Positions 3,050 through 53,861 of a stretch of DNA of 64,000 bases are shown here, one piece after another. Where the stretch lies: positions 7,705 through 71,704 of the forward strand of contig CACZAZ010000006.1 in the NCBI GenBank assembly GCA_902779285.1, read 5' to 3'. A model generated the notes under the pieces. It worked only from the letters and a program-made list of their open reading frames with translations, was not told the DNA's origin and searched no databases. Source of the DNA: an uncultured Ruminococcus sp. (lineage in GTDB: Bacteria; Bacillota; Clostridia; Oscillospirales; CAG-272). Made by a program: the position numbers and the translations under genes. How positions within the stretch are numbered: the first letter of the stretch is position 1; each line of letters begins with the position of its first letter.

Positions 3050-3085
3050 GAATGATATCCGCTCGCTTCAGGCGTCCTATATGCG

Positions 3086-3197
3086 CAATTCACGAACGGC
3101 GCAGCCGTTCAATTCACGCCGCGAAGCGGCAATTCACGCGGTGCGTCGCACCGCAATTCATGCCCGCAGGGCAATTCATTCTCTTTTCGTGAATTAA
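3086..3197. repeat. Array A: five copies of CAATTCA(C/T)(G/T), each separated by a different perfect mini-hairpin
   Basis: Words start at 3086, 3110, 3130, 3154 and 3172. The separators are AACGGC-gca-GCCGTT, CCGC-gaa-GCGG, CGGTGC-gtc-GCACCG and CCC-gca-GGG. An inverted word GTGAATT lies at 3189-3195. Confidence 0.9.
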
Positions 3198-3317: not shown

Positions 3318-5051
3318 ATGAAAAAGTATTTTCGAGGCGGAAGCATCGTCGTCGTCGGAAAATATCACGAGGAAGTGATCTACGACGTGCTCTCGAACGA
3401 TCTGCAAGTTACCTTTGACGGCAAGGGCGGGATCGCGGAGTGTACGTCGAGCACGCAAACGGGCGCGCACGCTCTGACGAGTACGGCGAGCGTTTATTCC
3501 GGCAAGAAAAAAATCGACGCGTTCTGCGAGAAGAGCGTCAAAATGATCGGGCGGACGCAGACGATCGTTCTGAAAACGGGCGACGTCAGGATCACGATCT
3601 ATCAGTTCGTTCCGGCAAAAGAGCGGGCGATCTTCTACGAGATCTCTGCGAACAAAGCGGGCGACTACGATTTCGTTCTAGATCTGGATCACAGGAGAAC
3701 GACCCGGTTCGACTTCGCCGCGAACGTCGAAAGCCGGTTCGTTCCCGAAAGCGCGTTGCTCTACGTTCACACGAATAAAAGAGCGCGGCTGGTTCTTTCC
3801 TGCGGTACCGACGCTGCCTACTGCCGCAGATTGCTGCCCCGTTTCGCCGAGTTCGAGGGGCAGGTCGAGGACGAGATCGCGAGTGTGAAGATCCCCGCGA
3901 CAGCGAGAAGCGAAAAGGACAAAGCCGTCTATACGTCAAGTTACCTTTGCGCGCTCGAGAACTATACGGAGATCGGGGACTACAAGTGCTTTTCCGAGAG
4001 CGTCGACCGAACCTATTTCCGCGACTCCTACTGGACGGTCCTGCCCATGTATAAGAGCCGTCCCGATCTCGTCCGGTGTCAGATTCTGACGCTCGCGCAC
4101 GGCGTCGAGGAGAACGGGGACTGTCCCGCCGCCGTGACGGTTGAATGGAACCCGTTTTTCCGCAATCAGTACGACAGCCCGAGTTTCTTCGTTTTGATGG
4201 TCTACGACTATATCAATCACACCGGCGACTTTTCGATCCTTGACGAAACGGTGAGGGGAAGAACGGTTTTCGATTGGTGCGCGTTGGCAGTCGACAAACT
4301 CGCCCTTTACGAGGACGAAACCCACCTGATCGTCAAAGCGGGGCCCCACAACAATCGCGACTGGGCGAACGAGGTCAACCGGACGGGCTACGTTACGTAC
4401 GTCGAACTCCTCTACGCCCGCGCCCTCGAGTGCCTCTCCCGCATTGCCGGAACGCGCGACGCCTCGCGCGCCCGCCGCTATCGCGCGATGTACGAACGGA
4501 CCAAAACCGCGATCAACGCCCTGCTCTGGGACGACGAAAAGGGATACTACGTCAACTACAGGGACGGCGATTTCGTCGAGGACAATCTTTCGGTCGACAC
4601 GATCCTCGCCGTCTTGTTCGGGATCGCGGATAAGGATAAGACCGAGCGGCTGCTCGACAACGTTTCGGCGATCCTCGAGAGCCGGAACAATAAGAGCCAA
4701 GGGGCGGGCGACTTCGGCGTGATGTGCGTTTATCCCTTCTACCGCGGATTGGGCAGGACTTTTCACAGAAATCTGCAGGACTACAAGTTCCACAACGGCG
4801 CCGTCTGGCCGTATTGGTCGGCGCTGGTCGCCTACGCGCAATTGATGCACGGACGGGATTATACTTACGCCCTGACTTCCTCTTTCGATTGGAGCGTCAA
4901 ACACGGGAGTTACACCCCGGTCGAATACTATTCGCCGCTTCATCCGTGCGGCGGGTGTCCGCAGGCGAGCGACGGCGACGTCGCGTGGGTTTACGATTGG
5001 AGGGACGGCGACTTTTTCAAGGAAAACGAAACCGTCTGGGGGACGAAATAA
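3318..5051 (+). CDS. six-hairpin (alpha/alpha)6 glycoside hydrolase, glycogen-debranching/GDE_C-like
   Basis: 577-aa ORF. Motifs FRDSYWT, YDSPSFFVLMVYDY, NRDWANEV and FHNGAVWPYW resemble amylo-alpha-1,6-glucosidase-type catalytic domains. It is a paralog of 8268-10013. Confidence 0.7.
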   Translation: MKKYFRGGSIVVVGKYHEEVIYDVLSNDLQVTFDGKGGIAECTSSTQTGAHALTSTASVYSGKKKIDAFCEKSVKMIGRTQTIVLKTGDVRITIYQFVPAKERAIFYEISANKAGDYDFVLDLDHRRTTRFDFAANVESRFVPESALLYVHTNKRARLVLSCGTDAAYCRRLLPRFAEFEGQVEDEIASVKIPATARSEKDKAVYTSSYLCALENYTEIGDYKCFSESVDRTYFRDSYWTVLPMYKSRPDLVRCQILTLAHGVEENGDCPAAVTVEWNPFFRNQYDSPSFFVLMVYDYINHTGDFSILDETVRGRTVFDWCALAVDKLALYEDETHLIVKAGPHNNRDWANEVNRTGYVTYVELLYARALECLSRIAGTRDASRARRYRAMYERTKTAINALLWDDEKGYYVNYRDGDFVEDNLSVDTILAVLFGIADKDKTERLLDNVSAILESRNNKSQGAGDFGVMCVYPFYRGLGRTFHRNLQDYKFHNGAVWPYWSALVAYAQLMHGRDYTYALTSSFDWSVKHGSYTPVEYYSPLHPCGGCPQASDGDVAWVYDWRDGDFFKENETVWGTK

Positions 5052-5111: not shown

Positions 5112-5208
5112 ATCGGAACCGCTCCGAACCGGTCGGATCAACAGCCGGATCCGATCAATACCATTCTCGGGAAACCATCGGGAACGGCGTTGCGTCGGAT
5201 AGTTTATA

Positions 5209-25709: not shown

Positions 25710-27029
25710 ATGCAACTGTTTCACTCTGAAAAATGCGCCTGCGGAAAGATCCACGACGCCGGATTCGACCGAATGAACGTCGGATCCGGCGCCGTCAATA
25801 CGGTCGCCCGCGAAGTGATCCGCCTCGGCGGGACGCGGGTGTATCTTCTGTGTGACGAGAACACGGTAAAGGTCGGGGGCGAGCGGGTCGCAAAATTGCT
25901 TGCCGCCGCCGGGATCCCGGTCAAGTCCTGCGTGCTCCCCGCCTCCGTCGAGCCCGACGAAGCGGGCGTCCTCGCGGCGAAGGGACGTTTTGATCCCGCC
26001 TGCGACCTTGTCCTCGCGGTGGGCTCCGGGGTCGTGAACGATATCGGCAAGTGCGTGGCGTTCGACGCGGGCGTACCCTACGTCGTCGTCGCGACCGCCC
26101 CCTCGATGGACGGCTACGCGTCAAATTCGGCGGCGATGGTCGTCGGCGGGCTCAAGGTCTCGCTTCCCCGCCGATGCGCCTCCGTCTTGATCGGAGACAC
26201 CGATCTGCTCGCGTCCGCCCCCGACGAGATGCTGATCGCGGGGCTCGGGGATATGATCGCCAAATACGTCAGCATCGCGGAATGGCGGATCTCGCATATC
26301 GTCACCGGCGAATACTACTGCGAACGGGTCGCCGCGGCAGTCCGCGAGGCGCTCGCGACGTGCGTGAAAAACGCGAAGGGTCTGCTCTCCCGCGATCCCG
26401 CCGCGATCGAGGCGGTGTTCGAGGGGCTGGTGCTTTCGGGCGCCGCGATGAACTACGCGGGTCTGTCCCGTCCGGCGTCGGGCATGGAACACTACTTCTC
26501 TCACATCTGGGATATGCGAGGGCTCGCCTTCGGGACCCCGGTCGCGCTCCACGGCATCCAATGCGCCGTCGGAACGCTCTATGCCGCCTCGGTCTACGAC
26601 GCGCTGCTCAAAGTCAATCCCGATAAGGACAAGGCGCTCCGGGCGGTCAGGGCGTTTGACCGCGACGAGTACTTCAGAGAACTCCGCGCCTTCGTCGGTC
26701 CCGGGGCGGACGCGATGATCGAGGCGGAAAACCGCGACGGCAAATACGACCCCGCAAAGCACGAAGCGCGGCTGTCGGTCATCCTCGACCGTTGGAACGA
26801 GATCCAAACGATCATCCGCGAGGAGATCCCCCGGGCGAAGGAGATCCGTTCCCTGCTCGCCTCCATCGGCGCTCCGACCACCCCCGAGGGGATCGGGCAA
26901 AAGCGTTCGGAGTTGCCCCTGACCTTCGCCGCGACCCGCGACGTCCGCGACAAGTACGTCCTCTCGCGCTTGATCTGGGATCTCGGGCTCACCGATCTTG
27001 CCAACGCCCGCCTGCTCCGCGAGAACTGA
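25710..27029 (+). CDS. sn-glycerol-1-phosphate dehydrogenase-like (AraM/EgsA family, iron-ADH fold)
   Basis: GSGVVNDIGKCVAF, ATAPSMDGYAS and MEHYFSHIWD motifs match my recollection of the G1PDH family. 439 aa. Confidence 0.6.
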   Translation: MQLFHSEKCACGKIHDAGFDRMNVGSGAVNTVAREVIRLGGTRVYLLCDENTVKVGGERVAKLLAAAGIPVKSCVLPASVEPDEAGVLAAKGRFDPACDLVLAVGSGVVNDIGKCVAFDAGVPYVVVATAPSMDGYASNSAAMVVGGLKVSLPRRCASVLIGDTDLLASAPDEMLIAGLGDMIAKYVSIAEWRISHIVTGEYYCERVAAAVREALATCVKNAKGLLSRDPAAIEAVFEGLVLSGAAMNYAGLSRPASGMEHYFSHIWDMRGLAFGTPVALHGIQCAVGTLYAASVYDALLKVNPDKDKALRAVRAFDRDEYFRELRAFVGPGADAMIEAENRDGKYDPAKHEARLSVILDRWNEIQTIIREEIPRAKEIRSLLASIGAPTTPEGIGQKRSELPLTFAATRDVRDKYVLSRLIWDLGLTDLANARLLREN

Positions 27030-27064: not shown

Positions 27065-27182
27065 CTTCACTTTTGCCGAAGGCAAAAACATCACGATCGC
27101 CGGCGCTCCGTTTCGGAGTACCGGCGATCACTTCACTTTGCGCCGTGGCGCAAAACTTCACTTTGTTCGCGCCCGCGCGGAC
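27065..27182. repeat. Array B: four copies of C(T/A)TCAC, each followed by a different hairpin
   Basis: Words at 27065, 27089 (CATCAC), 27131 and 27156. Hairpins: TTTTGCC-gaa-GGCAAAA; GATCGCCGG[...CTCCG-ttt-CGGAG...]CCGGCGATC; TTTGCGC-cgtg-GCGCAAA; GTTCGCG-cccg-CGCGGAC. Confidence 0.85.
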
Positions 27183-27184
27183 GA

Positions 27185-28585
27185 TCAGTATTCCGCGGAG
27201 CCGACGGTGCGGGGATAGGGGATGACGTCGCGGATGTTCGAGACGCCCGTGAGGTACATGATGATCCGCTCGAAGCCGAGTCCGTAGCCGGCGTGACGCG
27301 CGCCCCCGAAGCGGCGGAGATTCAGGTACCACGAGTAGTCCTCCTCGCGCATCCCGAGTTCTTTGATCCGTTTGATCAGAAGGTCGTACCGCTCCTCGCG
27401 CTGCGACCCGCCGATGATCTCCCCGACGCCGGGGACCAGCAGATCCATCGCCGCAACCGTCTTGCCGTCGTCGTTCTGCCGCATATAGAACGCCTTGATA
27501 TCCTTCGGATAATCGGTGACGAAGATCGGCGCGCCGAACACCTTCTCGGTCAGATACCGTTCGTGCTCGGTCTGCAGATCCATCCCCCACGAGACGGGAT
27601 ACTTGAAGGGTTCCCCGCTCTTTTGCAGGATCTCGATCGCCTCGGTGTACTTGACCTCGCGGCAGTCGGATCCAACGAGGGTGTTCAGCCGCTCGGAAAG
27701 CCCCTTGTCCACGAAGTTGTTGAAGAACTCGATCTCGGCGGGACAGGTCGTGAGGACGTGCCGGATGATGTGCCGGATCATATCCCAGGCGAGTTTCATA
27801 CAGTCGGAGAGGTCCGCGAACGCGATCTCCGGCTCGATCATCCAGAACTCCGCCGCGTGGCGGGCGGTGTTCGAGTTCTCGGCGCGGAAGGTCGGACCGA
27901 AGGTGTAGATGTTCCCGAACGCCATCGCGTAGGTCTCGCCCTCGAGCTGTCCGGACACGGTCAGGTTCGCGCTCTTGCCGAAGAAGTCCTGCGAATAATC
28001 CACCTTGCCGTCCTCGGTTTTCGGCGGATCCTCGAGATCCAGCGTGGTGACGCGGAACATCTCGCCCGCGCCCTCGCAGTCGGACGCCGTGATCAGGGGC
28101 GTATGCACGTAGACGAAGCCGCGGTCGTGGAAGAAACTGTGGATGGCGTACGCCGCCTCGCTCCGCACGCGGAAGACGGCGGAGAACAGATTGGTGCGCG
28201 GCCGCAGATACGCGATCTCGCGCAGGTATTCGACGGTGTGCCGCTTTTTCTGCAGCGGATAATCGGGGGTCGACGTCCCCTCAATTTCGACCTTGTCCGC
28301 CTTGATCTCAAAGGGCTGTTTCGCCCCCGGGGTCAGTTCGAGTTTCCCCGTGACGATCAGCGCCGCCCCGACGTTCTGGGACGCGATCTCGTCGTAGTTG
28401 GCGATCTTCTCGCGCTCGAAGACGACCTGCACCGTCTTAAAGCAGCTCCCGTCGTAGAGATCGATAAAGCCGAACGCGCGGCTGTCGCGGATCGAGCGCG
28501 CCCAGCCCCCGACCGTGACGGTCTTCCCTCCGAGGGAAGAGGATTCGTCGTACAGCCGCCGGACGGCGGTCAGTTGTTCTTTCAT
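27185..28585 (-). CDS. asnS: asparagine--tRNA ligase
   Basis: 466 aa. OB-fold N-terminus ([21 protein letters not shown]) and class II motifs ([35 protein letters not shown]). Confidence 0.96.
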
Positions 28586-34461: not shown

Positions 34462-36162
34462 TCACTTGTCGAGTTTCGCTTTCAGCACATCGCTCTGTTC
34501 TTCGACGAACGCGGCGATCCCTTTCACGGTTTCGGGATCGAGCGGATTCGGGAGCCCCGCGCGTTCGAGCGTCTCGAAATAGCCGTACTTCCCGCCCATT
34601 CCGCAGAGCGCGAGGTAGTCGCCCCAGGCGTCGCCGCCCGCGACCTGCTTGCGATAGAGGGCGAAGGCGTCGAGCTGCGCCATCGCGTAGTCGATATAGT
34701 AGAAGGGATAGAGGAAGATATGCTGTTTCTGCATCCAGAAGCCGCCGCCCTCAAGGAAGGCGTTGCCGTCGTAGTTGCGCCAGGGCATATACTTCCGTTC
34801 GATCTCGCGCCAGAACGTCCGGCGTTCGGCGGCGGTCGCGGCGGGGTTCTCGAACACCCGGTGCTGGAACTCGTCGACCGAGACGAGGTAAGGGACGGTT
34901 TTCAGGGCGTCGGTAAAGTGGGCGTAGCGATAGCGGTCCGCCATCTCGCCGCAGAACAGTTCCATCCACGGATAGGCGAAGAACTCCATCGTCATCGAGT
35001 GGATCTCGTTGATCTCGCTGGTCGATCCGGTCTGCTGCACGAGCGGCAGACGGCGCGAAGCGTAATAGCCCTCGAAGGCGTGTCCCGCCTCGTGAGTCAG
35101 CACGCCGATATCTTCCGACGTCCCGTTGAAATTGGAGAAAATGAAGGGCGCCTTGTAGTCGGCAAGGAGGGTCATATACCCGCCGAGGTGCTTGTTCTCG
35201 CGCGTGACGAGGTCGAGCAGTTCGTGTTCGGTCATAAAGTTGAAGAACTCGCCGGTCTCGGGGGACATTTCCCCGTACATCCGACGCGCCTTCTCGGTCA
35301 GTTCCTCCGGCGTTCCGATCGGTTTCGCGTTGCCGTCGGCAAAGCAGAGCGCCTCGTCGTACCATTCGAGCCGCTCGAGCCCGAGCCGCTCCGCCTGCTC
35401 GCGGTAGAGTTTGTCGCAGAGGGGGGTGATATAGGTCCGCACCGCCTCGCGGAAGGCGGCGACCCGCGCGGCGTCGTAGTCGTAACGCCCTCTCTCCGGG
35501 TAGATATAGCCGATATAACTCGCAAACCCCAGCCGTTTCGCGATCTTGCAGCGGAGTTTCACCAGTTTGTCGTACTGCTCGTCCAGTTTGTCCGAGATTC
35601 CCTCGTAGAGTTTCGCCCACTCTTCAAAAGCCGCCTTCCGCTCGGCGCGGTCGGTCGACTGCATATGCCGGAGCAGACCGTAGAAATTGCACTTCTCGCC
35701 CATGAACTCGACCGAACAGGTCGCCGCCGTCTTCGAGTACGCCGTTTTGAGCGTCTCCTCGCGGATCGAGGGCAGAATGATCGACGGCTTCACGAGTTTC
35801 ATCTGAACCTCGAAATCCTTGAAAAGATGCTCGCCGTACTTTTCCTCGAACGAGGGGCGGAAGGGGCTTGCCAAAACCGCCTTCATCGCTTTTTTCATCG
35901 TCAGCATCAGTTTCGCGCTCTCGCGGTTGAAAAACTTGATTTCCCCGTCGTAGAACTCGTCCTTCATATTCATCGTGTTGCGGACGCTGGCGATCGTATA
36001 CTGCGTTTCAAACCCTTCGACGAGTTTTTCAAAGCCGCGAAACGCCGCGTCGGCGGCGTCAAAATCCTTTGCCGCCTTCAGGTTGCCGATCTCTTTCGCA
36101 AGACTCTTTTTCAGCGCCGGAACGTCGGGTCTCTGATACGGAAGATCCTTGAACTTTTCCAT
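34462..36162 (-). CDS. M3 family oligoendopeptidase (PepF-like)
   Basis: HEAGHAFE zinc motif. About 566 aa. ATG at 36162 is preceded by GGAGG at 8 nt (the tracked start at 36177 is also possible). Confidence 0.88.
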   Translation of the reverse strand: MEKFKDLPYQRPDVPALKKSLAKEIGNLKAAKDFDAADAAFRGFEKLVEGFETQYTIASVRNTMNMKDEFYDGEIKFFNRESAKLMLTMKKAMKAVLASPFRPSFEEKYGEHLFKDFEVQMKLVKPSIILPSIREETLKTAYSKTAATCSVEFMGEKCNFYGLLRHMQSTDRAERKAAFEEWAKLYEGISDKLDEQYDKLVKLRCKIAKRLGFASYIGYIYPERGRYDYDAARVAAFREAVRTYITPLCDKLYREQAERLGLERLEWYDEALCFADGNAKPIGTPEELTEKARRMYGEMSPETGEFFNFMTEHELLDLVTRENKHLGGYMTLLADYKAPFIFSNFNGTSEDIGVLTHEAGHAFEGYYASRRLPLVQQTGSTSEINEIHSMTMEFFAYPWMELFCGEMADRYRYAHFTDALKTVPYLVSVDEFQHRVFENPAATAAERRTFWREIERKYMPWRNYDGNAFLEGGGFWMQKQHIFLYPFYYIDYAMAQLDAFALYRKQVAGGDAWGDYLALCGMGGKYGYFETLERAGLPNPLDPETVKGIAAFVEEQSDVLKAKLDK

Positions 36163-36193
36163 TGTCTCTGCCTCCATCGTTCGTTTTTCCTTT

Positions 36194-36222
36194 ATTATAT
36201 CACATCAAGCGGAGATTGCCAA
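36194..36222 (-). promoter_or_regulatory. sigma-A type promoter of the M3 peptidase gene
   Basis: On the minus strand: TTGGCA (36222-36217), 17-nt spacer, TATAAT (36199-36194). Confidence 0.65.
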
Positions 36223-36262
36223 CCCCCCGACGAAAAAAGCGTCGGCGGGGAACGAAGCGCGA

Positions 36263-36378
36263 GTTATGAGACCCCCGTCGGGGTCGTTATGGTTTTGCCT
36301 TCCGTTTTTCGGACGGCAAAAGTTATGAGTTTGGCTTACGCCAAACGTTATGAATTCGGCTGTCGCCGAATGTTATAT
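36263..36378 (+). repeat. Array C: five copies of GTTATG(A/G)(G/A), each separated by a different hairpin
   Basis: Words at 36263, 36286, 36322, 36347 and 36372 (degenerate GTTATAT). Hairpins: ACCCC-cgtc-GGGGT; TTTTGCCTTCCG-ttttt-CGGACGGCAAAA; TTTGGC-ttac-GCCAAA; TTCGGC-tgtc-GCCGAA. Confidence 0.9.
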
Positions 36379-36416
36379 ATTCGATACTGCAAACTAATTA
36401 TGGTTAAAAACAAAAA

Positions 36417-36442
36417 GGCGGCGGGGAGAAATCCCCGCCGCC
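36417..36442 (-). terminator. rho-independent terminator of the four-helix-bundle gene
   Basis: GGCGGCGGGGA, loop gaaa, TCCCCGCCGCC. The T-run on the minus strand is the A-rich run at 36405-36416. Confidence 0.8.
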
Positions 36443-36457
36443 TTGACGATTAAAGGT

Positions 36458-36814
36458 TTACAAGGTGTTCGTTTTAAGAGTTTTTACCGACGATACCAAC
36501 ATTCTGCGCAGCTCGATACAACTCTTTTGAAACTCGTCAAAGACCTCTTCTTTGATGCAATCGGTTTCTTTCAACAATTCGAGCCAATACTCGCTCTCAT
36601 TGCATTCTTTCAGCGCAATTTCAAGCTTTGAAACAAAGTCTTTCGTTCCCTGCGCATATTGCGCTTCGTGAAGGTTTGCGCCAACAGAGGTACCGGCGCG
36701 AAGCAACTGATTGAGCAGGACGGATTCGACCCGTTCCTCTTTAAGTTTTCGACAAAGAAAGACAATGCTTTTGGCAAAGTCTTTGGATTTGACTCGCAAA
36801 ACGCTATCGTTCAT
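36458..36814 (-). CDS. four-helix-bundle protein (23S rRNA intervening-sequence protein / Avd-like family)
   Basis: Family-typical motifs LLRAGTSVGANLHEAQYAQGTKDFVSKLEIALKECNESEYWLELL. Visibly lower GC than all neighbouring genes. Confidence 0.85.
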   Translation of the reverse strand: MNDSVLRVKSKDFAKSIVFLCRKLKEERVESVLLNQLLRAGTSVGANLHEAQYAQGTKDFVSKLEIALKECNESEYWLELLKETDCIKEEVFDEFQKSCIELRRMLVSSVKTLKTNTL

Positions 36815-36838
36815 TGTCCCCTCAAAACCAAGTTTTCA

Positions 36839-36984
36839 GTTATGAGTCCTGCTTGCGCCGAACGTTATGATATGATCGCCGGTTACTTCCAACGTGCCGT
36901 CAGGCACTCATAACTGCGCGCAGCGCATCATAACTCTAAACTCGCCGTCAGGCGATCATAACTGCAAAACGCGCTGCGTTTTGC
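36839..36984. repeat. Array D: GTTATGA x2 on plus, then TCATAAC x3 (the inverted word) alternating with different hairpins
   Basis: GTTATGA at 36839 and 36864. TCATAAC at 36908, 36928 and 36956. Hairpins: GTGCC-gtca-GGCAC; TGCGC-gca-GCGCA; TCGCC-gtca-GGCGA; GCAAAACGC-gct-GCGTTTTGC, which abuts the guaA stop. Confidence 0.9.
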
Positions 36985-37965
36985 TTACTCCCACTCGATC
37001 GTGGCGACGGGTTTCGGGGACAGGTCGTACAGGACGCGGTTGACGCCCTTGACCTCCGCGAGGATCCGGTCGACGATGTGCTTGAGTAGCGGATAGGGGA
37101 TCTCCTCGATCGTGGCGCTGGTGGCGTCGACCGAGTTCACCGCACGGATGATGACCGGCCAAGCCCAGGTGCGCTTGTTGTCCACGATACCGGTGGAGCG
37201 GTAGTCGGGAACGGTGGTGAAGTACTGCCACACCTTGCCGGCGAGCCCGTTCTTCTCGAACTCCTCGCGGAGGATGGCGTCGGATTCGCGCACCGCTTCG
37301 AGACGGTCGCGGGTGATGGCGCCGGTGCAGCGCACGCCGAGTCCGGGACCCGGGAACGGCTGACGGTTGACCATCCCGTCGGGAAGACCGAGTTCACGGC
37401 CGACGCAGCGGACCTCGTCCTTGTAGAGGAACTTGACCGGCTCGACCAACTCGAACTGCAGATCGTCGGGAAGACCGCCGACGTTGTGGTGCGCCTTCAC
37501 GCCGACGCTCTCGAGGATGTCGGGGTAGATGGTGCCTTGTCCCAGAAACTTGATCCCCTCCTGCTTTCTCGCCTCTTCCTCGAAGACGCGGATGAACTCG
37601 GCGCCGATGATCTTGCGCTTCTGTTCGGGATCGCTGACGCCCGCCAGCTTATCGAGGAAGCGGTCGACGGCGTCGACGTAGACGAGGTTGGCGTTCAGCT
37701 GATCGCGGAAAACGCGGATCACCTGTTCGGGCTCTCCCTTGCGGAGCAGACCGTGGTTGACGTGGACGCAGACCAGGTTCTTGCCGATCGCACGGATCAG
37801 AAGCGCGGCGCAGACCGAAGAATCGACGCCGCCCGACAGAGCGAGCAGGCACTTGCCGTCCCCGATCTGTTTTTTGAGCGCGGCGACCTGTTCGTCAATG
37901 AACGCTTTGGCGAGTTCGGGGGTGTTGATCCGTTTCATGCTTTCGGGGCGGACGTTGTTTTGCAT
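36985..37965 (-). CDS. guaA: GMP synthase ATP-pyrophosphatase unit only (no glutamine amidotransferase domain)
   Basis: The ATG at 37965 has a GGAGGA RBS. SGGVDSSV PP-loop and C-terminal dimerisation domain ending IEWE. 326 aa. The 220 upstream codons of the tracked ORF are antisense to 38158-38721 and do not resemble a GATase. Confidence 0.88.
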   Translation of the reverse strand: MQNNVRPESMKRINTPELAKAFIDEQVAALKKQIGDGKCLLALSGGVDSSVCAALLIRAIGKNLVCVHVNHGLLRKGEPEQVIRVFRDQLNANLVYVDAVDRFLDKLAGVSDPEQKRKIIGAEFIRVFEEEARKQEGIKFLGQGTIYPDILESVGVKAHHNVGGLPDDLQFELVEPVKFLYKDEVRCVGRELGLPDGMVNRQPFPGPGLGVRCTGAITRDRLEAVRESDAILREEFEKNGLAGKVWQYFTTVPDYRSTGIVDNKRTWAWPVIIRAVNSVDATSATIEEIPYPLLKHIVDRILAEVKGVNRVLYDLSPKPVATIEWE

Positions 37966-53565: not shown

Positions 53566-53594
53566 TTGCATTTCTTATTTGTCTGTGTTATAAT
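53566..53594 (+). promoter_or_regulatory. sigma-A consensus promoter of rpmB
   Basis: TTGCAT (53566-53571), 17-nt spacer, TATAAT (53589-53594). Confidence 0.7.
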
Positions 53595-53675
53595 AGGCTT
53601 CGCCGATTTATGGTTTTTTGAAAAAATGATCAGATAGATGCGTCCGATCGTTCGTGTTTTATGGAGGTGAACATC

Positions 53676-53861
53676 ATGGCTCAGTGTGAATATTGCGATA
53701 AGAAGATCACGTTCGGGAACGCCGTTTCCCACTCGAATCGCAAGACCGGCAGAACCTGGAAGGCGAATATCCGCAAGGTTCGGGCGATCGTCAACGGTAC
53801 CCACAAGACCGTTTACGTTTGCTCCCGTTGCCTTCGTTCCGGCAAAGTCACCCGTGCGTGA
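53676..53861 (+). CDS. rpmB: 50S ribosomal protein L28
   Basis: MAQCEYCDKKITFGNAVSHSNRKTGRTWKANIRKVRA matches the L28 signature. GGAGG RBS. Confidence 0.95.
   Translation: MAQCEYCDKKITFGNAVSHSNRKTGRTWKANIRKVRAIVNGTHKTVYVCSRCLRSGKVTRA

Follow-up and report, generated by a model that had tools for sequence, protein, structure and literature searches.

What are arrays of a repeated 7-nt word doing on either side of a small gene, and do they belong to it? A stretch of 64 000 nucleotides from an uncultured Ruminococcus sp. (contig CACZAZ010000006.1, positions 7705–71 704 of the forward strand; this whole stretch is called the window below) raises this question between guaA and a gene for an M3 peptidase. 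The interval holds a 118-codon gene for a four-helix-bundle protein of family PF05635, and on both sides of it the word GTTATGA alternates with small hairpins, in array D next to guaA and in array C next to the M3 gene. The original prediction, made from the letters alone, saw in these arrays either the scars of a mobile or processing mechanism or a structured-RNA cassette. We show that arrays D and C and the 118-codon gene together make up a conserved cassette of two parts. The first is a structured nucleic-acid element, ~200 nt long, with the 7-nt word in forward and inverted blocks and small hairpins in between; the second is the four-helix-bundle protein. A conserved element with a fixed order of parts, covarying stems and a long-range helix, part of which is catalogued as the Gut-1 RNA, is not what scars would leave.

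Word arrays accompany the gene in many species

On both strands of the window together GTTATGA occurs 10 times, as compared to 2.35 occurrences expected and at most 7 in any shuffled sequence, and 8 of the 10 sites are confined to positions 36263–36962. The word sites listed originally are exact at these eight positions; the two others, at 36286 and 36372, are mismatch variants (Table 1). We collected relatives of the gene by a metagenome scan with the 118-aa protein, which returned 80 loci at 62–100% identity, and scored an array wherever one 7-mer occurred at least 4 times, non-tandem, within 300 nt upstream of the open reading frame (ORF). Of the loci, 68 had sufficient upstream sequence, and 46 of these carried such an array, as compared to 105 of 5709 control windows (68% of loci versus 1.8% of controls, i.e. 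a roughly 37-fold upstream enrichment). The check suggested originally, whether other four-helix-bundle genes are flanked by the same kind of array, thus supports, in relatives, the tie between arrays and gene. The top upstream words all belong to one family, namely GTTATGA, GTGATAT/GTTATAT or close variants.

In the dominant layout 2–4 forward units are followed by a centre, 2–4 inverted units and the ORF. With F for the forward and R for the inverted block, the variants are R-ORF-F (L102), F-ORF-R (L122) and F-R-ORF-F-R (L095). The words GTTATGA, GTKATAT and RTGAAAT are each paired with one of three protein clades (classes 1, 2 and 3 in the following), and the third, more distant clade (~40% identical) always carries RTGAAAT/ATTTCAY arrays of like design. 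Thus the word follows the protein clade and not the locus. Moreover, homologous hairpins (e.g. gtttggcgtaagccaaac and tcgccNNNggcga) recur together with the same word upstream of orthologues and paralogues in many species. We therefore abandon the earlier notion of a locus-specific word with idiosyncratic palindromes. Orthologues with 83–84% identity also occur in species without the M3 gene, where they come after guaA; their words are the same and their hairpins recognisably so, and a direct repeat of the array, partial or complete, lies 3' of the ORF. Exact copies of the protein are confined to the guaA–M3 locus within the same species. Protein residues that discriminate between the word classes were sought as well, but the few columns found, mainly in helix 4, are confounded with phylogeny.

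Architecture of the element in the window

Read in gene sense, the parts follow each other as guaA stop codon, hairpin, three forward words, centre, two inverted words, ORF, terminator and five inverted words. Array D itself holds both word orientations, and array C repeats the inverted block in a better-preserved form; C and D are not the simple pair of facing terminal inverted repeats for which they had been taken. In gene sense the words of array C read ATATAAC, TCATAAC, TCATAAC, CCATAAC and TCATAAC. The array is homologous to the R blocks of relatives, and its hairpin gtttggcgtaagccaaac is common to L090 and L095. The R block upstream of the ORF, which has 2–4 words in relatives, is short and decayed in the window: the spacer at 36846–36863 is a single imperfect, decayed hairpin, and only 24 nt, including the ribosome-binding site, separate the block from the start codon. 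The inter-word hairpins of arrays C and D are short near-perfect palindromes. A hairpin of variable sequence at the position of hp0 (Table 1) precedes the first word in all inspected guaA-linked and tRNA-linked relatives. Both hp0, abutting the guaA stop codon, and the M3-peptidase promoter lie where they had been predicted.

Table 1. Features of the cassette and of other arrays in the window (window coordinates; centre and R-block words in gene sense)
Feature	Position	Strand	Description
Four-helix-bundle ORF, 118 codons	36458–36814	–	PF05635 E = 3e-26; TIGR02436 E = 2e-30
GTTATGA, exact	36263, 36322, 36347, 36839, 36864	+	
GTTATGA, inverted	36908, 36928, 36956		
Variant words	36286, 36372		GTTATGG (one mismatch); GTTATAT (two mismatches)
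Array C, second inverted (R) block	36263–36378	–	Five words and four hairpins, 3' of the terminator
Array C, inter-word hairpins	36270–36285, 36293–36321, 36329–36346, 36354–36371		
Array D, inter-word hairpins	36894–36907, 36915–36927, 36942–36955		
Hairpin hp0	36964–36984	–	GCAAAACGC-AGC-GCGTTTTGC; abuts guaA stop codon (36985–36987); left edge of the element in gene sense
Forward (F) block and centre, Gut-1-type part	36864–36962	–	Covariance model R1 and sequence reading
F-block words	36956–62, 36928–34, 36908–14; degenerate word 36935–41	–	
Centre	36871–36893	–	GTTGGAAGTAACCGGCGATCATA; between F block and first inverted word (36864–70)
Inverted (R) block upstream of ORF	36839–36870	–	Short and decayed; two TCATAAC words
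Intrinsic terminator of the four-helix-bundle gene	36415–36444	–	Strong; 13-bp stem, then T run
M3-peptidase promoter	36222–36194	–	TTGGCA-17-TATAAT; context, outside the element
Palindrome upstream of M3 promoter	36223–36249		CCCCGCCGACG-cttttt-CGTCGGGGGG; context, outside the element
Array A, solo	3071–3190		Five AATTCAC/T words, four differing GNA-loop hairpins, then one inverted TGAATT
Array B, solo	27065–27160		ACTTCAC/ACATCAC words, three hairpins of 17–35 nt

The arrays are not a series of intrinsic terminators. Of the hairpins in and around them only that at 36415–36444 clearly qualifies as a GC-rich stem with a U tract, while the array hairpins run into GUUAUGA-type words and not into U runs. 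A scan for promoter-like sites between guaA and the ORF in the window found none. We also considered a promoter inside the centre (TATAAT/TATCAT) and dismissed it, as by eye there is no acceptable –35 box at a workable spacing and the scan returned none. With no promoter-like site detected in this interval and no U tract after the first hairpin, transcription of guaA should extend through array D.

Relation to the Gut-1 RNA motif

The arrays resemble Gut-1 (RF01706) in having at least three small hairpins separated by a conserved 7-nt word (GUGAAAU/GUGAUAU); the Gut-1 consensus consists of three hairpins separated by GUGAAAU. Gut-1 was reported only from human-gut metagenomes, and no gene context was named (Weinberg et al. 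2010, PMC2864571). At the Rfam gathering threshold of 50 bits we found ten matches (L144, L431, L167, L180, L420, L178, L159, L141, L151 and L225). Nine of them lie within an array adjoining a PF05635 gene: eight coincide with the F block on the gene strand, directly upstream of the gene, and one (L151) is on the opposite strand. Arrays of classes 2 and 3 upstream of PF05635 genes exceed the Rfam threshold. In L144 the Gut-1 model scores 52.8 bits on the forward block and, on the other strand, 44.4 bits on the inverted block. Between L420 and the Gut-1 seed sequence BAAZ01025322 of Weinberg et al. the compared stretch shows a single mismatch, so that the two appear to be the same locus, and L420 extends into a PF05635 gene.

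We also used a covariance model of our own, R1, built from 28 F blocks (alignment A1) of other loci, Gut-1-positive ones included and without any sequence from the window. On the F block of the window R1 scores 71.3 bits over its full length (E about 1e-13), on the Gut-1-positive loci L144 and L431 it scores 72.7 and 28.8 bits, and on the plus strand of array C the match is weak (15 bits). A further R1 match at 53587–53710 of the window is a false positive over the promoter and start of rpmB. The minus strand at 36864–36962 of the window shows the Gut-1 architecture with three words, one degenerate word and three hairpins, but the word is GUUAUGA, hairpin 2 is lacking, and the copy goes undetected by the Rfam model. 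Judged by this likeness, the forward block of the window is a word variant of the Gut-1 motif. The published motif covers the forward block alone; inverted block, centre, long-range helix and downstream PF05635 gene are absent from PMC2864571.

The window thus presents a member of the Gut-1 family, with its own word, joined to a so far unrecognised candidate partner gene. In the library searched we found no paper linking Gut-1 or heptamer repeats with PF05635, and the link between gene and motif appears unreported. Gut-1 has been an orphan structured-RNA candidate since 2010, without organism, gene context or function, and now has a candidate partner gene. PF05635 in turn is very large, with thousands of close relatives in data from gut and rumen alone, and known only as the ORF of 23S rRNA intervening sequences and as the fold of Avd from diversity-generating retroelements (DGRs). 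The linkage gives each of the two a testable partner. In one locus (L165, 1256–1760) the whole array of F block, centre and R block is tandemly duplicated before a single four-helix-bundle gene, and the two copies score 108 and 95 bits with R1.

The candidate protein partner

The 118-aa protein scores well above the curated cut-offs of both families (Pfam, 92.1 bits versus 33.8; TIGR02436, 105 bits versus 24) and matches PDB entry 2RLD with E = 1.7e-28. Its AlphaFold model consists of four helices (pLDDT 94) and superimposes on 2RLD with a TM-score of 0.88, on 2GSC with 0.80–0.83, on Avd (4DWL) with 0.78 and on Avd in the DGR ribonucleoprotein (8UBE) with 0.76. The kinship to Avd that had been surmised therefore holds at the level of structure. 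Avd is a pentameric scaffold that contacts structured RNA, and the two closest solved homologues of our protein, 2RLD among them, were each deposited with five chains. By analogy, the Avd-type structures give a precedent for a pentameric scaffold of the same fold in contact with structured RNA. Beyond the four-helix-bundle fold (TM-scores 0.76–0.78) the two systems differ: sequence identity is just 14%, and neither a reverse transcriptase (RT) nor a template/variable repeat pair adjoins the window gene. Its neighbours are guaA and the M3-peptidase gene, and no RT gene is called in the cassette loci with gene tables. A search with PADLOC gave no defence-system match for the protein.

Stems, covariation and the acting strand

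The stems of the arrays are almost perfect (836 of 878 stem pairs are Watson–Crick), and pairing in the hairpin stems reaches about 94%. In alignment A1 the sequences of hairpins 1 and 2 do not vary, while hairpins 3 and 4 covary, with many compensatory changes and up to five pair types. In addition, the centre takes part in a long-range helix of ten pairs, whose other strand comprises the first word and the left arm of hairpin 1. Pairing in this helix amounts to 95%, compensatory changes are seen at three positions, and one of these (GTTTTAT with AATAAAA) is peculiar to the first word; in clade 3 both arms of the helix change jointly (AAATCC with GGATTT). The array of L169 folds with a z-score of –8.8, that of the window with –4.1. 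In the predicted minimum-energy fold the forward words are paired with the inverted words and the hairpins are left as branches. The pairing of individual words could not be assigned rung by rung: third forward with first inverted word (98.5% paired) and fourth forward with first inverted word (96.9%) are equally suitable, the words within an array being too similar to discriminate.

Because of the fixed orientation, the asymmetry of the blocks and the covariation we favour a single-stranded role of the arrays, probably as RNA. Tentatively, we take the cassette to combine a structured nucleic acid with a pentameric protein of the Avd type, in a design akin to that of the 23S rRNA intervening sequences; among the readings considered it is the one we prefer, though at slightly less than even odds. 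The element would work as a single strand, most likely RNA, the class 1 array being part of the guaA read-through transcript. Its hairpins would fold locally and so display the words, and the forward block would be closed by the long-range helix between the first word with the hairpin-1 left arm and the centre. Forward and inverted words could pair into a branched stem, like the stems that bound the 23S rRNA intervening sequences. The repeated units might then be read by an oligomeric protein, as the five-chain homologues and the pentameric Avd of the DGR ribonucleoprotein suggest. Both parts together may form a ribonucleoprotein or an autoregulatory or processing module that would let the gene live inside or beside host transcription units.

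Several observations weigh against this reading. The Rfam model of Gut-1 gives no match in 36100–37100 of the window, even at E ≤ 10. All eight gene-independent arrays (A, B, L051, L052, L067, L070, L192 and L225) lack an adjoining PF05635 gene. Word-to-word pairing is not kept rung by rung in heterogeneous arrays, and a model of inverted binding sites explains the complementarity of the words equally well. On the gene-sense strand, C(GNA)G or GNRA loops predominate in the inverted block and the forward block has their complements; C(GNA)G triloops are typical of stable DNA mini-hairpins. The attempt to assign the strand from G·U versus A·C mismatches (17 versus 6, pooled) failed, as mismatches are too few in such nearly perfect stems. 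In clades 2 and 3, finally, the array is preceded by a terminator and followed by a strong promoter that belongs to the gene itself. It would thus be outside the mRNA of the gene, which argues for a separate transcript or a role at the DNA level.

Binding to double-stranded DNA is one such role. The heptamers would be iterated sites of a regulator, either the four-helix-bundle protein or another one, that controls the adjacent promoter, in the manner of the omega repressor of inc18 plasmids, which uses iterated heptads of consensus WATCACW. Indeed, a strong –35 box adjoins the last word both in classes 2 and 3 and in the solo array A of the window, words occur in direct and inverted orientation, and ATATCAC followed by T resembles the omega heptad. 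However, the covarying palindromes between the words argue for intrastrand pairing and not for recognition of a duplex, the spacing of the words varies from 16 to 25 bp, and no promoter is found beside the class 1 array. We consider an operator array improbable.

The arrays might also be generic intergenic hairpin repeats (weak tandem terminators, insulators or mRNA stabilisers) that are incidental to the gene, or footprints of insertion and excision. They are intergenic and follow gene ends, some hairpin-plus-word units pass a loose terminator scan, and solo arrays exist. Against this stand the upstream enrichment, the conserved order with its centre and long-range helix, words that are specific to a protein clade, hairpins that are homologous across species, and stems without following U tracts. 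Enrichment, conserved layout, R1 score and long-range helix largely refute a reading as generic repeats or scars, and we regard it as highly improbable. Growth of the arrays by target-site duplication or a CRISPR-like accretion of hairpins was likewise rejected, since hairpins at equivalent positions are conserved across species and clades.

Exchange of the cassette and arrays without the gene

Is the cassette an insertion, as its position and low GC content had suggested? In the closest species (L010; M3 peptidase 93% and guaA 91% identical) the spacer between guaA and the M3 gene has no arrays and no cassette, and the guaA terminator and the promoter region are still recognisable. The site is occupied there by another two-gene insert: at 5142–5990 of L010 lie one ORF of 84 aa (PPHIHA motif, by eye DUF4160-like) and another of 147 aa. 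The guaA–M3 interval is thus a variable slot and a hot spot for small accessory genes. The GC content of the window ORF, estimated by eye before, is in fact low (0.437, as compared to 0.588 in the M3-peptidase gene, 0.611 in guaA and 0.606 in the whole window). However, in 60 of 61 loci the ORF has a lower GC content than its flanks (medians 0.39 versus 0.50); low GC is therefore a trait of the family and by itself no evidence of recent arrival.

Comparison of further loci reveals the borders of what is exchanged. L116 and L117 share a 97% identical array-plus-ORF unit of ~500 bp in unrelated flanks; the shared unit begins with the first word and ends ~10 nt short of the stop codon. In L006 the identity to the window is ~100% over a segment that begins ~50 nt ahead of the guaA stop codon and extends through the ORF, while the rest of guaA is only ~78% identical. 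Array and ORF behave as one cassette that is exchanged between contexts as a unit, without a recombinase of its own. We saw no integrase or transposase in the cassettes or their immediate neighbours at the loci fetched with gene tables, and RT, transposase and integrase gave no Pfam match among the 13 window ORFs scanned. If it is true that the cassette moves without its own recombinase, this would be a new mode of gene spread.

The cassettes have preferred locations. Class 1 is found after guaA in 17 of 23 loci, and in 9 of 25 class 2 loci a co-oriented tRNA gene precedes the cassette. Cassettes of classes 2 and 3 often begin directly behind such a tRNA gene (Arg, Gln, Asn, Met, Leu or Gly; e.g. 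L161, L167, L169, L172, L174, L420, L435 and L440), next to its terminator, whereas class 1 cassettes never begin there. In L098 a Gabija-like pair (OLD-TOPRIM/AAA_15 and UvrD helicase; 1–2300) lies upstream of the cassette, in the usual position of guaA, with guaA itself outside the fetched stretch. A 13-nt remnant of the guaA 3' end, gagtgggagtaa, stands beside the first hairpin of L098, and the same remnant is present in L116 (380–430). These remnants suggest that islands may have integrated at the guaA 3' end.

Arrays also occur without the gene. Array A of the window (Table 1) is located directly upstream of a TTGACA-17-TATGAT promoter for the gene at 3318–5051 and scores 20 bits with R1 (E 0.05), and no four-helix-bundle gene is nearby. 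Array B lies between the convergent genes at 25710–27029 and asnS (27185–28585), and R1 gives no match to it. A scan with the M3 peptidase, with one genome per species, assigned the window to uncultured Clostridia of the rumen, and a mechanical array search in the 80 loci that it returned yielded four further arrays, all of them solo (L051, L052, L067 and L070). When viral contigs were pattern-scanned for three spaced words, nearly all matches were coding tandem repeats; two were real arrays (L192 and L225), neither adjoining a PF05635 gene. R1 recovers solo arrays in L192 (79 bits), L070 (40 bits), L052 (28 bits) and also L225.

Location, borders and solo copies would fit an attachment element acting at the DNA level. 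Arrays folded in single-stranded DNA would be sites for a recombinase or transposase encoded elsewhere, like integron attC sites or the REP/RAYT system (repetitive extragenic palindromes and their associated transposases); array and ORF would be a mobile cassette, solo arrays empty or relic sites, and the protein cargo or an accessory factor. In line with this, the cassette has sharp boundaries, from first word to stop codon, in unrelated flanks; the layouts of L095, L102 and L122 resemble circular permutations; solo arrays of the same family score up to 79 bits; the guaA 3' end and tRNA genes are classic integration sites; and both the C(GNA)G triloops and the position of class 2/3 arrays outside the mRNA would fit. 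On the other hand, no integrase or transposase is seen in any cassette or its immediate neighbours, the asymmetry of F and R blocks and their fixed orientation to the ORF suit a directional transcript better, the linkage to guaA across species also fits vertical descent, and the hallmarks of attC are absent from the arrays. In all, we rate an attachment element as unlikely, though well above the operator and generic-repeat readings.

Two known systems make the differences concrete. As in integrons, a small promoterless ORF (class 1) is combined with a folded repeat, contexts vary and the layouts look like circular permutations; but here each block repeats its word directly, the hairpins are perfect without extrahelical bases, and the element is upstream of the ORF. 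An attC site, by contrast, is a single imperfect palindrome with extrahelical bases between inverted core sites RYYYAAC...GTTRRRY, situated 3' of the ORF and with an integrase nearby; our loci showed no integrase. As in REP/RAYT, most sampled protein genes have repeats alongside (46 of 68) and gene-independent repeat copies stand solo. Unlike there, however, PF05635 is not an HUH transposase, and it is the short word and not the palindrome that is constant: the flanked gene encodes a PF05635 protein, and the palindromes differ within an array.

Distant members of PF05635 and the 23S rRNA parallel

The literature places the PF05635 family inside rRNA genes and between cmr genes. We examined distant PF05635 genes (L421–L430) from plasmids of other phyla and of Monoglobus. 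Inverted blocks of heptamers or long inverted repeats bracket most of those from cyanobacteria, Bacteroidota, Chloroflexota and Spirochaetota. One Nostoc gene has (AATTCGT)4 upstream and (ACGAATT)4 downstream, another Nostoc gene is flanked by a 40-nt perfect inverted repeat, and in Euhalothece ACCAGT-type heptamers lie upstream and (ACTGGTC)12 downstream. Heptamer repeats also flank the gene in Planktothrix, Pseudanabaena, Bernardetia, Chondrinema, Chlorohelix and Treponema; the opposed orientation is clear in most of these six and partial in Pseudanabaena and Treponema. Several distant genes lie inside operons, placed between RND (resistance–nodulation–division) adaptor and permease genes, between those for hsdS and hsdR or for a helicase and a methylase, or before cas1.

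The parallel to 23S rRNA intervening sequences that had been drawn is apt in view of these distant members. The protein family is the same, the ORF of the distant members is bracketed by inverted repeats that could form a stem, and a low-GC gene lies between host genes. In our cassettes, however, the blocks lie mostly upstream of the ORF and the words are interleaved with mini-hairpins. The location differs too: the window gene is situated between guaA and the M3-peptidase gene, and 36100–37100 contains no rRNA match. The heptamers beside the distant genes we liken to the short tandemly repeated heptanucleotides (STRR) of cyanobacteria. Tandem ACTGGTC, CCCCAAT and AATTCGT flank PF05635 genes on plasmids of Nostoc, Euhalothece and Planktothrix, but in contrast to our arrays there are no hairpins between the heptamer words.

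The tandem heptamers of the distant members suggest one principle behind rRNA intervening sequences and small 'intervening' genes of operons. Taken further, PF05635 proteins and inverted, clade-specific heptamer blocks might form a two-component cassette that is widespread across phyla, consisting of the protein and a structured RNA or single-stranded DNA, with a pentamer reading the heptamers and Gut-1 as the Clostridial nucleic-acid partner. ORF-bearing 23S intervening sequences, PF05635 genes in restriction, CRISPR and efflux operons and some cyanobacterial heptamer repeats would then share this principle, and such cassettes could be self-propagating or defence-linked, with movement that is recombinase-free or driven in trans. 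We put this forward as a possible but, on present grounds, doubtful generalization.

Neighbouring features

Two observations concern the surroundings of the cassette. A palindrome lies at 36223–36249, upstream of the M3 promoter. In the sister species L010 the guaA terminator has a right arm and tail that match this palindrome's left arm and T run, as if half of an old terminator had re-paired with a new inverted copy. The guaA gene of the window (36985–37965; L001 1850–2830) is called as a protein of 326 aa that comprises the ATP-pyrophosphatase and C-terminal domains only; the glutamine amidotransferase half must be encoded separately.

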